Part shown: positions 149 through 14,952 of the stretch, piece after piece
Numbering within the stretch: position 1 is the first letter of the stretch
Layout of the letters: each line of letters opens with the position of its first letter
Source of the DNA: Candidatus Bathyarchaeia archaeon
GTDB taxonomy: Archaea > Thermoproteota > Bathyarchaeia > Bathyarchaeales > DTEX01
Direction: 5' to 3'
DNA length: 64,000 bases
Assembly (NCBI GenBank): GCA_038897035.1
Contig: JAWAXF010000005.1
Coordinates: forward strand, 4,648-68,647
Position numbers and translations under genes: made by a program
Notes under the pieces: generated by a model
The model's database searches: none
What the model was told of the DNA's origin: nothing
What the model saw: only the letters and a program-made list of their open reading frames with translations

Positions 149-829
149 ATGAGGTTAGGCGCTCTCTTCTCAGGTGGGAAAGATTCATGCTTGGCCATTT
201 ATAGGGCTCAAGCCTCCCATGAAGTTGTATGCCTAATAAATCTGATACCAAGGAGTGTTGAAAGTCAACTTTTCCACTTTCCAAACGCCTGGATAACGAA
301 GTTTCAGGCCGAGGCTATGGAGCTACCAATAATTCAACTAGAGACGAGTGATGAGGAGGAGATGGGATTAGTGGACTTATCCAGGGCCTTAAGATTAGCT
401 GCTAGGGATTTCGGTATTGAGGGAGTTGTCACCGGGGTTGTAAGGTCAGTATACCAAGTAAGTAGAATACGGAGGATATGTGAGGAAATTGGGTTACACT
501 GCCTTAACCCTCTCTGGCTTAAGAGAGCGGAGGATATATTGAACGAGGTTTTAGAGGAAGGATTTGTCGCTATGATAACCGGAGTTTTCGCATACCCCCT
601 AAACGAAAGACTCCTTGGAAAAATTATAACTGTAGATTTAGCTGAGGAACTCTTAGACTTAAGTAAGAAATATGGCTTTGATGCGGCTGGTGAGGGTGGC
701 GAAATAGAAACAACGGTGCTAGATGGGCCTATCTTCAAGAGGAGGATAGAGGTCACAGATTACGAGGTTTCCTATAGGGAGTATTCTGGAATATTACGGA
801 TAAAGGGCTTAAGGTTAATCCCCAAATAA
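149..829 (+). CDS. PP-loop ATP pyrophosphatase, diphthine-ammonia ligase (Dph6 / MJ0570-like)
   Basis: N-terminal PP-loop motif 'LFSGGKDSC'. Size (226 aa) and overall pattern match the archaeal MJ0570 family. Confidence 0.7.
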   Translation: MRLGALFSGGKDSCLAIYRAQASHEVVCLINLIPRSVESQLFHFPNAWITKFQAEAMELPIIQLETSDEEEMGLVDLSRALRLAARDFGIEGVVTGVVRSVYQVSRIRRICEEIGLHCLNPLWLKRAEDILNEVLEEGFVAMITGVFAYPLNERLLGKIITVDLAEELLDLSKKYGFDAAGEGGEIETTVLDGPIFKRRIEVTDYEVSYREYSGILRIKGLRLIPK

Positions 830-871
830 GGTTTTATGAAATGAAAATCACCTTTTTAATTCAGAAAAAGC

Positions 872-1633
872 CTAATTGATCTCGAATATTCTCTTCGCGT
901 TCTCCGTTGTTTTCTCAGCCACAACCCTTACACTCTCGCCTTTTAACTCAGCTACAGCATTTAAGGCTTTAATTATATGGGCTGGCTCAGAGGGCTCACC
1001 AGCATAGACTACAGGTGTATCCGTCTCCAAGATTATGTTCTCTAGGGGCGTGTTCTCAATAACCCTTCTATGCTCTCTACTATAGGCGGCTGCGGGCGTA
1101 GCGGAAATACTATATCCATGATCAAGCAGCTTCTTGAGGGTGTCAAGGGGTCCGCTAAACCAGTGGAAGACCGCCTTTTTAACCCCTGCTTCTATGGTCA
1201 TGTTGACACAGTCCATCCAAGCCCCCCTACTATGAACGGACACAGGCTTATTGCTTCTCTTTGCCAAACTAAGTATTCTCCAGAAAACATCTCTCTGAAT
1301 CCCCCTAACATTATTGTTCTTTCTCGCCTCCTTATACCAGTAATCTAATCCGACTTCACCTAAGGCGGCTACATTGTTTACGTTTTTCTCAATTAAGTCA
1401 ATTGTCTCTTTGATCTTTAATACGTCTAAGCCCCATGGGTGAATGCCAAGCGCCGGGTAAATCTTTAACTTCCTAGTTCCATATTTTCGGCTCTCACATA
1501 AAACCCACATATTGGACTCATAATCAGAGCCAACGGCTATTACTGCTATAACACCAACCCTTGCGGCTCTTCTAATGGCGCTCTTTAAACTCTTAACACT
1601 TTCTAAATGAGCATGTGTATCTATTAATTCCAT
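872..1633 (-). CDS. TatD-family metal-dependent hydrolase
   Basis: N-terminal 'IDTHAHL' metal-binding motif, later 'HS/HWFSG' and 'ETDTP' motifs typical of TatD. 253 aa. Confidence 0.8.
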   Translation of the reverse strand: MELIDTHAHLESVKSLKSAIRRAARVGVIAVIAVGSDYESNMWVLCESRKYGTRKLKIYPALGIHPWGLDVLKIKETIDLIEKNVNNVAALGEVGLDYWYKEARKNNNVRGIQRDVFWRILSLAKRSNKPVSVHSRGAWMDCVNMTIEAGVKKAVFHWFSGPLDTLKKLLDHGYSISATPAAAYSREHRRVIENTPLENIILETDTPVVYAGEPSEPAHIIKALNAVAELKGESVRVVAEKTTENAKRIFEIN

Positions 1634-1980
1634 AATAATAACTCCCCGTTTTAAAAATCACAATATTTTGTGATGAGGCTTTCTAATAAACCTTCATTGA
1701 AGCTTTATCTATAAATTGATTTACTCTAAAGGCATAAAGGTTAAATCCTGCAGAAAAATAAGTAATTAAAATCCTAGCTGAATAAAATGGTCAAGTTCGC
1801 AGAAGGTGTAAGCATGCGAATAACCATTATAAGGAGAAGGGTCTTTGAAGGTCTGATCTCTCAAGATCTTCTATTCCGAGAATATAGAGAGACCCCGCTG
1901 ATTAGCTTTGCTTCTAATAGCGAAAACTTGTTTTCCCCAGATGCCCACTTTAATTGTGACTGGTAATTAGGTGATTCATT

Positions 1981-3190
1981 ATGAATAAGGAGTGCTACAT
2001 GGCTGTAGTGAACATAAAACAAGATTACTGTAGTCGTTGTCTAATCTGTTATAGTGTTTGCCCCTACGAAGCTATTAAACTTGACGCGGAGACTGGAGCA
2101 TTAGAAATAGATAATCAAAAATGTCAGGTATGCGGAATATGCTATGGTGCCTGCCCATCCCGAGCGATAGAAATCGCCTATTATGATTACTCTGACTTAA
2201 TCAAGTATACTGAGGAGATTATGCAAAGAACAAAAGCTGACACGTTGGTATACACATGTCGTGGTAACTCACCCACTTTTGAAGAGATTAAGGAGTTACT
2301 CGCAAGTGAGAGGCTTATAGCAGAGAATATTGTGTCTTTACGTCTTCCATGCTCAGGAAGAGTACCGATGGAGTTTATTTTTAGTGCTCTAAAAGCTGGA
2401 GCTAAGAAGATAATATCTATACGGTGTAATGATGAATTTTGCCGCTTTAAGAAGGGATCAAGGATCAACGCTATACGTCTGAGCATAGGCAAAAAGATTC
2501 TTGAGATCTTGGGATATCCGGGCGACGCAATTGCCGCCATTGAATATTCACGAAAAGCTGTTTATTTCACAGAGAAATGCGTTGGATGTGATAAATGTGT
2601 TTTTGTTTGTCCTTATAAAGCCATTGAGGCCGAGAGTTTCGCAACACCAAAAATACTTGATGAAAAATGCATGGGCTGCGGCTTATGCGCGTTAGCTTGT
2701 CCACATCATGCAATACAAGTTAAGGGATTTGAATTTGAAAATATTTTAAAGCGCTATACAAGTGCGGCGGCAAAGCTAAAGGCTGAGGGAAAATCCCCCA
2801 TTGTTTTAGTTTTCTGCTGCCTATGGTCAGAGTTCTCCTTCCTCGACAGGCCTGAAATTGAGATTGCCAAAAGGAATTCTGTGGTAATAGAGATCCCATG
2901 TTTCAAAGCCCTCGATCCAGTTCATGTAATCTATGCTCTACAAAATGGTTTTGATGGTGTGATAGCTGTTGTATGCTCAGACGAGGATTGTAAACTTAAG
3001 GAAGGAAGAGACGTTGCTGAAAGAAACATAAGGGTCTTAAAAGATGTTCTTTTAAAAATGGGTCTCAGAGAGCGCTTTGAGCTTTTTGAATCGTCCCCAA
3101 GATTTTTAGGGAACTTTGAAAAAAGACTAAACGATTTTGTAGAAAAGGTTTCAGGTTTCCATGCTAAAGAGAATGTAGGAGGGAAAAGGA

Positions 3191-7270: not shown

Positions 7271-7327
7271 ATGTAAACGAATATAAGATAGTCTTAAGGA
7301 AAAACAAAAAGAAAAAGGGTGGTGCTT

Positions 7328-7600
7328 ATGCCGGCAATAGAGGTTGGTAGAATCTGTATAAAGACTAGAGGGAGGGAGTCTGGCAAGCGTTGCGTAGTAC
7401 TAGACATTATAGATAGGAACTATGCGCTGATAACAGGCCCAAAAAATGTTACGGGCGTTAGGAGAAGGAGAGTGAATATAAATCATCTTAAACCCACAGA
7501 AGACCTTATTAAGATAAAGAGAGGGGCATCTGATGAGGAAGTCTATAAGGCTATCGTAGAGGCAGGACTACTTGAAAAATATATGCAGAAGAGGGGATAA
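7328..7600 (+). CDS. rpl14e: 50S ribosomal protein L14e
   Basis: 'MPAIEVGRICIKTRGRESGKRCVV..ITGPK..GVRRRRVNINHLKPT' is typical L14e. Confidence 0.85.
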   Translation: MPAIEVGRICIKTRGRESGKRCVVLDIIDRNYALITGPKNVTGVRRRRVNINHLKPTEDLIKIKRGASDEEVYKAIVEAGLLEKYMQKRG

Positions 7601-7628
7601 TTATTATAGCCTTAGTAATCGGGGGATT

Positions 7629-8659
7629 ATGATAAAAATGCAGGAGATTAGAGCGCCATGGGATATAAAAAGGGAACTTCTGGTGAAATCTGAGGATGAA
7701 ACAGATCCAAAATATGGCCACAAACCAGAGGAGCGGCCATATCCCGAAATAATAAGGTTCGGTGTAATAAACCTCGACAAGCCTTCAGGGCCATCTAGCC
7801 ACGAGGTAACGGCATGGATTAAGCGCATATTAGGTATCGAGCATGCCGGTCACGGAGGGACCCTAGAGCCCACTTATAGGTCAGCGGGCGTGGAAACCCC
7901 AAGGTGACCGGCGTCCTACCGATAGCTCTTGAGGAAGCTACAAAGGTTATTCAGGCGCTCCTAAAAGCTGGCAAAGAGTACGTTGGCATAATGAAACTTC
8001 ATGAAGATGTTCCTGAAGTGAGAATCAGAGAGGTTTCTAGCGAATTTCAAGGCAAAATCTATCAGAGACCCCCTTTCAGAGCTTCTGTTAAAAGGACTTT
8101 ACGGGTTAGGGCCATTTATTATTTTGAGATATTAGAGGTCGAGGGGAGAAATATTCTTTTTAAGGTTGGATGTGAGGCTGGAACCTACATTAGAAAGCTC
8201 ATTCATGATATTGGTAAGGCTCTGGGCTGTGGCGCGCATATGCAGGAGCTGCGTAGGATTAGAGCTGGTCCCCTTACAGAGGATTCAGGTCTCGTTACGC
8301 TACATGATGTTTTATACCTCTACGGCAGGTGGAAGGAGACAAGAGAAATTGGTTTCCTCAGAAGATTCATCATGCCGATGGAGAAAACTCTTGAATTTCT
8401 TCCAAAAGTCTTCATTAAGGACTCGGCGGTGGATGCCATCTGCCACGGCGCGCACCTAACTGCCCCAGGTATAACGTATATTGAAACTGGTATAAAGCCG
8501 ATGGATACCGTTGCCATATTCACATTAAAGGGCGAAGCGGTAGCTCTAGGAAGAGCAGAGGTGAGCACCGAAGAAATGCTTAAGGCCACTCATGGAATAA
8601 TGGTTAAGACAGAAAGAGTGCTAATGCCCAGAGGAATATACCCAAAAATGTGGAGATAA
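7629..8659 (+). CDS. cbf5: H/ACA RNP pseudouridine synthase Cbf5 (TruB family), interrupted by a 29-nt BHB-type intron (exon 1 7629-7866, exon 2 7896-8659)
   Basis: ORFs 7572-7907 and 7904-8659 are the N- and C-terminal parts of Cbf5 in different frames. Removing 7867-7895 joins '..HAGHGGTL' to 'DPKVTGVLPIALEEATK', restoring the universal catalytic-Asp motif GGTLDPKVTG and a 333-aa protein with a C-terminal PUA domain. Confidence 0.85.
7867..7895 (+). other. Predicted archaeal BHB (splicing-endonuclease) intron within cbf5 pre-mRNA
   Basis: Inner helix GCCC(7868-71)/GGGC(7886-89). 3-nt bulges AGA (7865-67) and AAA (7894-96). Relaxed 4-bp central helix CCCU(7861-64)/GUGG(7890-93). Outer exon-exon helix GCCGGUCAC(7845-53)/GUGACCGGC(7904-12). 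Cleavage after the 2nd bulge nucleotide gives the in-frame junction cta g|ac ccc. Confidence 0.6.
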
Positions 8660-14835: not shown

Positions 14836-14952
14836 TGGCGCCGGGGGTGGGATTTGAACCCACGCGGCCCACAATGGGCCACAGGCTCCCTTAGTCTCTG
14901 CTTTGTACTTTAGCTCTCAAGGCCTGCGCCTTATCCGCTCGGCCACCCCGGC
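14836..14952 (-). tRNA. tRNA-Ser(UGA), class II, with a 28-nt intron at 37/38 (14888-14915) and encoded CCA
   Basis: Hand-folded. Acceptor GCCGGGG/CCCCGGC, discriminator G. Anticodon stem CAGGC/GCCUG, loop CU-UGA-G|intron|A. 6-bp variable arm GGCCCA/UGGGCC, T-arm GUGGG-UUCAAAU-CCCAC. BHB central helix CUUG/UAAG with 3-nt bulges. Confidence 0.8.

Follow-up and report, generated by a model that had tools for sequence, protein, structure and literature searches.

A probable 29-nt bulge-helix-bulge intron in the catalytic Asp codon of cbf5 from a member of the Bathyarchaeia

The window analysed here is a 64,000-nucleotide stretch of contig C5 from a hot-spring metagenome-assembled genome of 1.25 Mb, which comprises 24 contigs and is rated 100% complete. 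Within it, cbf5 appears as two open reading frames in different frames, 7572-7907 and 7904-8659, both on the forward strand, and the break falls inside the GGTLDPKVTG motif at the catalytic aspartate. Deletion of the 29 nucleotides 7867-7895 joins position 7866 to 7896 and gives a single open frame of 333 codons, starting from the ATG at 7629 (ATG 7638 is an alternative start). The joined frame contains ...CTA GAC CCC AAG..., which restores GGTLDPKVTG, and reads ...HAGHGGTLDPKVTGVLP.... The Asp codon (GAC of GGTLDPKV) is divided as G^intron^AC, where the caret marks a splice position, and the predicted junction in the spliced RNA is CUAG^ACCCCAAG. The preliminary description of this DNA had proposed the two frames, the break at the catalytic Asp and the in-frame L-D-P-K left by removal of 7867-7895, and on all of these the coordinates bear it out. 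The parts of the gene are as follows.

7629-7866, forward strand: cbf5 exon 1, from the ATG at 7629 to G, base 1 of the catalytic Asp codon
7867-7895, forward strand: predicted cbf5 intron of the bulge-helix-bulge (BHB) type, 29 nt, AGCCCACUUAUAGGUCAGCGGGCGUGGAA, removal of which gives a gapless Cbf5
7896-8659, forward strand: cbf5 exon 2, from AC, the last two bases of the Asp codon, through the stop codon

By family and structure matches the host gene is archaeal cbf5, encoding the H/ACA pseudouridine synthase. The spliced product aligns with Pyrococcus abyssi Cbf5 (PDB 2aus; E 3.7e-131) without a gap at the junction, PDB Cbf5 chains match it with E-values of 1e-129 to 1e-131, and it scores above the cut-off of both NCBIfam Cbf5 equivalogs (NF003280, 460 bits; TIGR00425, 451 bits). 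Its domains are DKCLD, TruB_N, TruB_C_2 and PUA. The first two start in exon 1, which matches P. abyssi Cbf5 from residue 9 on, and exon 2 encodes the remainder of TruB_N followed by TruB_C_2 and PUA. The nearest named records are MAGs of hot-spring Bathyarchaeota/Bathyarchaeia, with at most 87% identity over exon 2. The ORF directly 5' of cbf5 (7319-7600, forward strand) looks by eye like ribosomal protein L14e.

Public protein collections list the halves of cbf5 as separate proteins, and some of the short halves carry the name 'H/ACA ribonucleoprotein complex subunit 4'. The locus is thus a real trap for automatic annotation, as had been anticipated: gene callers give cbf5 as two fragments, so that marker-gene sets, pangenomes and metabolic reconstructions mis-score an essential gene. 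The same calls, and the separate database entries, would be expected if the two ORFs were translated separately and the products then assembled into a split Cbf5. Such an arrangement is extremely unlikely, since the catalytic Asp lies in neither piece (ORF 1 ends ...GGTLEPTYRSAGVETPR and ORF 2 begins at the Val of DPKVTG) and exon 2 lacks a start context conserved among relatives of differing insert length.

The RNA around the break has a pronounced fold. RNAfold gives -36.4 kcal/mol for 7840-7918 (z = -2.8 against dinucleotide shuffles), and the outer helix is part of the minimum-energy structure, as are GGG/CCC, CC/GG and GCCC/GGGC. The elements at the proposed intron boundaries are listed below, in the order of the sequence.

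7845-7853, forward strand: extended exon-exon helix, 5' strand GCCGGUCAC, Ala-Gly-His codons, pairs with 7904-7912
7857-7860, forward strand: exon helix h, 5' strand GGGA, pairs with 7897-7900
7861-7864, forward strand: central helix H, 5' strand CCCU, Thr-Leu codons, pairs with 7890-7893
7865-7867, forward strand: 5' bulge AGA, predicted cut after G7866
7868-7871, forward strand: inner (intron) helix h', 5' strand GCCC, pairs with 7886-7889, present in the minimum-energy fold
7886-7889, forward strand: inner (intron) helix h', 3' strand GGGC, pairs with 7868-7871
7890-7893, forward strand: central helix H, 3' strand GUGG, internal to the intron
7894-7896, forward strand: 3' bulge AAA, predicted cut after A7895
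7897-7900, forward strand: exon helix h, 3' strand CCCC, pairs with 7857-7860
7904-7912, forward strand: extended exon-exon helix, 3' strand GUGACCGGC, Val-Thr-Gly codons

The 5' strand of the extended helix, GCCGGTCAC (7845-7853), is perfectly complementary to GTGACCGGC (7904-7912) over 9 bp, and the minimum-energy fold extends this helix to 11 bp. Between it and exon helix h lies a 3x3 internal loop. Beside the bulge, helix h has a mismatch, A7860.C7897, where 77 of 85 intron-bearing relatives (see below) have A-U. The pairs of central helix H are C-G, C-G, C.U and U.G, and h' encloses a loop of 14 nt. Among the same relatives the 5' bulge is AGA or UGA in 79 and the 3' bulge AAA or AGA in 80. 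The outer helix, the letters and coordinates of both bulges, the relaxed 4-bp helix between them and the inner GCCC/GGGC helix agree in every detail with those drawn beforehand, and the suggested check with RNAfold places the BHB helices in the minimum-energy structure.

The canonical hBHBh' motif of archaeal tRNA introns was reportedly defined by Marck and Grosjean in 2003; the definition is quoted in PMC7714728. The cbf5 motif has two 3-nt bulges on opposite strands, with four stacked positions between them, and flanking helices of at least two Watson-Crick pairs (4 bp in h' and 3 bp, GGG/CCC, in h), all of which it shares with the tRNA introns. Four standard pairs in the central helix are not found: with its C.U mismatch and U.G pair, the BHB is of the relaxed type and departs from the canonical form. 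It differs from the tRNA introns also in sitting within the coding region of an mRNA and in having an exon helix made of codons with constrained wobble positions. The same enzymes, EndA and RtcB, would be expected to act on both.

For comparison with related genes, 40 relatives and 80 named loci were searched, and the motif region was extracted by script. An insert between GGTL and PKV is present in 85 of 91 distinct Bathyarchaeia cbf5 loci and missing from the other six. The insert is located at the same nucleotide in all 85, with a length of 17-45 nt that covers all three length phases. The interiors are variable and the boundaries are kept, as ...ACC CUA G^a gcc... at the 5' end and ...ggc gKgg aa^AU CCC at the 3' end. 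Two loci, L017 (G^GG...) and L028 (G^TG...), set the phase, with exon 1 stopping after the G of the Asp codon; they exclude the alternative splice register 7868-7896, which in the present gene would give the same mRNA.

Pairing was scored in an anchored alignment made up of 24 exon nucleotides on the 5' side, the 6 initial and 11 terminal bases of the intron, and 19 exon nucleotides on the 3' side. The BHB pairing is present in 93.4% of cells (92.6% for the extended exon-exon helix and 94% for central helix H), and changes on both sides of a pair occur in 100 cells compared with 29.3 in shuffles. None of 500 shuffles attained the observed pairing or covariation, and in controls with slid partners just 27-48% of cells were paired. 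Two pairs of helix H have undergone double changes from C-G to U-A, one in 16 sequences and the other in 5. Compensatory changes affect every one of the four h' pairs, on both sides, and examples in which the exon varies together with the intron are ACU CUA/AGAG, ACC UUA/AAGG and ACC CUA/GGGG. As the architecture recurs in 85 loci with compensatory changes, and none of the 500 shuffles matches it, it exceeds what chance would produce. The alignment to related cbf5 loci that the preliminary description had put forward as a check thus finds both the insert and its compensatory pairs conserved (85 of 91 loci). Throughout the genus of the window (17 sequences), pair 2 of helix H is C.U or U.U, so that the relaxed form is stable in this genus and no recent defect.

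The conserved insert also bears on the possibility that cbf5 is a pseudogene, broken by a 29-bp insertion, with H/ACA-guided pseudouridylation lost or taken over by another enzyme. The reading of the gene as two ORFs in different frames would agree with this, as would a Pus10-like gene elsewhere in the genome (contig C12). We regard it as very unlikely. The gene is single-copy, being the only cbf5 in a complete genome, and its two halves, neither of which contains a stop, share 75-98% identity with those of relatives from over 20 genomes of the genus. The genes for Nop10 and Gar1 are present, which indicates that the H/ACA machinery is retained. Moreover, an insert at one nucleotide in 85 loci, with its structure kept and its sequence variable, is a pattern that decay does not give.

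Translational recoding, in which the ribosome bypasses or shifts frame across the insert and the RNA is not spliced, would draw on the strong structure of the region, and stable hairpins are able to promote ribosomal bypassing. A frameshift, however, cannot restore the Asp. In the frame of exon 2 the codon before CCC AAG is AAC (Asn), and this frame is blocked by a TAG at 7877-7879; a -1 shift within 7880-7903 would produce N in place of D together with about 10 extra residues. With inserts of 17-45 nt in every phase among the relatives, no one recoding rule fits. The conserved features are those of an endonuclease substrate, namely 3-nt bulges four pairs apart, and bypassing leaves the BHB covariation unexplained. 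Recoding is accordingly a highly improbable explanation.

It is scarcely conceivable that the insert is an artefact of assembly or sequencing, even in a genome that is metagenome-assembled in 24 contigs. A structured insert of 29 nt is atypical of sequencing error, homologous inserts occur at the same base in independent assemblies from many studies, and both ORF products are found on at least 7 contigs from several sources. When metagenome contigs were searched with a degenerate pattern of the spliced junction, the 7 matches were intronless cbf5 genes of other lineages, with 53-67% protein identity, and carry no information on splicing of the present gene. A group I or group II self-splicing intron was also considered and rejected, as the core of such introns takes hundreds of nucleotides and the cbf5 intron has only 29.

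An intron is the reading that accounts for the break, as had been argued against a frameshift: precise removal of 29 nt alone rebuilds the Asp, and the inserts of the relatives come in all phases with their pairing compensated. It is very probable that cbf5 holds a 29-nt archaeal intron of the BHB type at 7867-7895, after base 1 of the catalytic Asp codon. Exon and intron bases of the pre-mRNA would fold into the relaxed BHB, and the splicing endonuclease would then cut behind base 2 of each 3-nt bulge, at G7866 and A7895. The enzyme is presumably a heterotetramer in which a catalytic alpha subunit bearing the crenarchaeal specificity loop is combined with a beta paralogue that lacks catalytic function. 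Ligation of the exons by RtcB would produce ...CUA GAC CCC AAG... and a normal Cbf5 of 333 aa. That cleavage and ligation take this course in the present organism is what we infer from the sequence. The model assumes efficient cleavage of a degenerate BHB, with C.U and U.G in the central helix and A.C at the start of the exon helix, and the alpha-beta EndA would presumably tolerate the two non-Watson-Crick positions in this copy of cbf5.

The genome encodes proteins suited to this task. Two genes with an EndA domain lie outside the window, at C1:95017-95592 and C13:11680-12285 (genome G000). One product, of 191 aa, is of the catalytic type: its closest match is the catalytic chain of the A. 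pernix heterotetramer (3p1z_B; E 1.2e-45), and it keeps the Tyr, His and Lys. No gap interrupts the alignment over the crenarchaeal specificity loop, and the K44/R46 positions are K/K. K44 and the specificity loop confer a broad substrate range on EndA (PMC3241643). The second paralogue, of 201 aa, is without the catalytic His and would fit a structural beta subunit. This pair of genes, one alpha-like and one lacking the His, is what a hetero-oligomeric (alpha-beta) EndA looks like at the level of sequence, and suggests that Bathyarchaeia use the (alpha-beta)2 type of endonuclease. One RtcB gene is present. ARAGORN predicts introns in 16 of 37 tRNA genes genome-wide, among which some long ones are doubtful and some are at non-canonical positions. 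Within the window, ARAGORN with the intron option places a 28-nt intron in tRNA-Ser(UGA) (14836-14952, reverse strand), and Rfam matches 14839-14952 as a tRNA of 114 nt; over the whole window, an Rfam scan at gathering thresholds reported two tRNAs and nothing else.

The exon strands of the BHB consist of codons, and their wobble positions covary descriptively with the intron bases in the aligned genes. The comparison set was 26 intronless genes, 20 from genomes and 6 from metagenome contigs. Several pairs depend only on wobble bases: x3 forms in 76% of the genes with the intron versus 10-17% of those that lack it, x4 in 82% versus 10-40%, h2 in 87% versus 0-20% and h4 in 98% versus 33-40%, percentages that are treated as descriptive only because the relatives are non-independent and the intronless rows were hand-picked. 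The gene may be regarded as a clean natural case in which an RNA structure whose sole purpose is to be cut limits the choice at synonymous positions. The third base of the Asp codon was tried as a mark of intron loss, with GAT in 77 of 85 intron-bearing genes and GAC in 6 of 6 intronless ones, and was given up when a wider intronless sample had GAT in 14 of 20. The idea had rested on a U that closes the exon helix; the A-U pair in intron-bearing genes holds.

Introns spliced by the endonuclease are rare in archaeal protein-coding sequences, and crenarchaeal cbf5 had been named beforehand as the classic reported case. The literature agrees: Yokobori et al. 2009 (PMC2738675) describe a cbf5 intron of 16-44 bp that disrupts the catalytic codon, at the same site as here, is cut between bulge bases 2 and 3 and was confirmed by cDNA in several species. 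In that study it was reported only in Desulfurococcales and Sulfolobales, and was absent from Thermoproteales, two thaumarchaea and Korarchaeum. The present intron shares with the crenarchaeal one (Watanabe et al. 2002; Yoshinari et al. 2006; Yokobori et al. 2009) the gene and the Asp-codon site, the size class (29 nt) and the lack of an ORF, a relaxed BHB with a cut, here predicted, between bulge bases 2 and 3, a host with a two-gene EndA, and a patchy distribution with secondary losses. It differs in its host, a Bathyarchaeia MAG from a lineage unsampled in those papers, and in the constant C.U or U.U in the central helix of the genus; splicing is cDNA-confirmed there and predicted here. The preliminary description was right about the kind of intron, with the qualification that the host belongs to the Bathyarchaeia and is no classical crenarchaeote.

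A 2020 paper counted crenarchaeal cbf5 as the only BHB intron in archaeal mRNA besides its own 5' UTR case (PMC7714728). That case, HVO_1309 of Haloferax volcanii (Schwarz et al. 2020, PMC7714728), resembles the present one in being an mRNA BHB site for the splicing endonuclease, as is predicted here. It lies in the untranslated 5' leader, in a euryarchaeon with a homodimeric EndA, whereas the cbf5 intron interrupts a codon and its removal would be needed for active enzyme. Our literature search found no paper linking Bathyarchaeota to a cbf5 intron, a result that does not prove absence. Introns of this kind are known; what goes further than the papers searched is the lineage of the host and how widely the intron is distributed.

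Among 300 sampled genomes of the phylum, split cbf5 was found in many families, and at least 10 Thermoproteota families outside the Bathyarchaeia have the same split base and context. Genomes that fit Sulfolobaceae and Desulfurococcaceae, lineages with experimentally demonstrated cbf5 splicing, have the same split, G^...^AY, in the context ACCCUA G^a...gggg aa^AU CCC. The inserts of 22, 23 and 16 nt in three complete genomes are of the sizes published for Sulfolobus and Desulfurococcus, and these genomes would fit Sulfolobus acidocaldarius, S. shibatae and Desulfurococcus. The shared base and context in ten families, together with the matching insert sizes, indicate that the Bathyarchaeia intron is, in position and structure, the same element as the published one. 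A distribution so wide and patchy makes the intron unsuitable as the sharp taxonomic marker that it had been proposed to be. Two other Thermoproteota families (L121 in G063 and L131 in G046) have same-site inserts of 14 and 13 nt; their motif is DPAVSG or DPGVSG, and the inserts leave scarcely any room for an inner helix.

A quick maximum-likelihood tree was computed for the exon-2 proteins, with 127 rows, of which 26 are intronless and were added deliberately. On this tree the intron must change state at least 11 times, and well-supported branches force 5 of these changes. Within the Bathyarchaeia the intronless genes form a few clades nested among intron-bearing ones. This distribution fits ancestral presence followed by several losses, within the limits that the root and a single-gene tree set on the inference. 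Ancestral presence with losses was argued for the Desulfurococcales in 2009 (Yokobori et al., PMC2738675). In Bathyarchaeia the intron is the rule, implying that it either arose much earlier than the Desulfurococcales-Sulfolobales ancestor put forward in 2009 or marks a strong insertion hot-spot. A further reading, to which we give somewhat less than even chances, is that of one ancient Asp-codon element that the common ancestor of Bathyarchaeia and classical Crenarchaeota already carried, that was lost many times and that is no novelty of the Desulfurococcales and Sulfolobales. Otherwise, introns may have been inserted repeatedly and independently at this site, where the codons (AGH...VTG) are self-complementary by nature. 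If the element is indeed ancient, its long persistence with wobble bases held in pairing would imply a selected role. The intron may then be regulatory, and one candidate role would be to tie Cbf5 production to how active the EndA/RtcB splicing system is.

A different kind of insert was seen in the cbf5 of two Bathyarchaeia of the same order, where about 530 aa are inserted in frame at GTYIRKL^C...SN^CHD. We know of no reported Cbf5 intein. The two genes are as follows.

L166 (G032:C66:1400-4400), ORF 207-2822: cbf5 with intein-like insert
L167 (G033:C11:291800-294800), ORF 203-2566, reverse strand: cbf5 with intein-like insert

The insert has motifs of the LAGLIDADG type (LLGLIASDG and FLKGYFDGDG), and on account of these it resembles an intein that carries a homing endonuclease. 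The cbf5 of G033 combines it with the Asp-codon intron; that of G032 has the insert of about 530 aa only.
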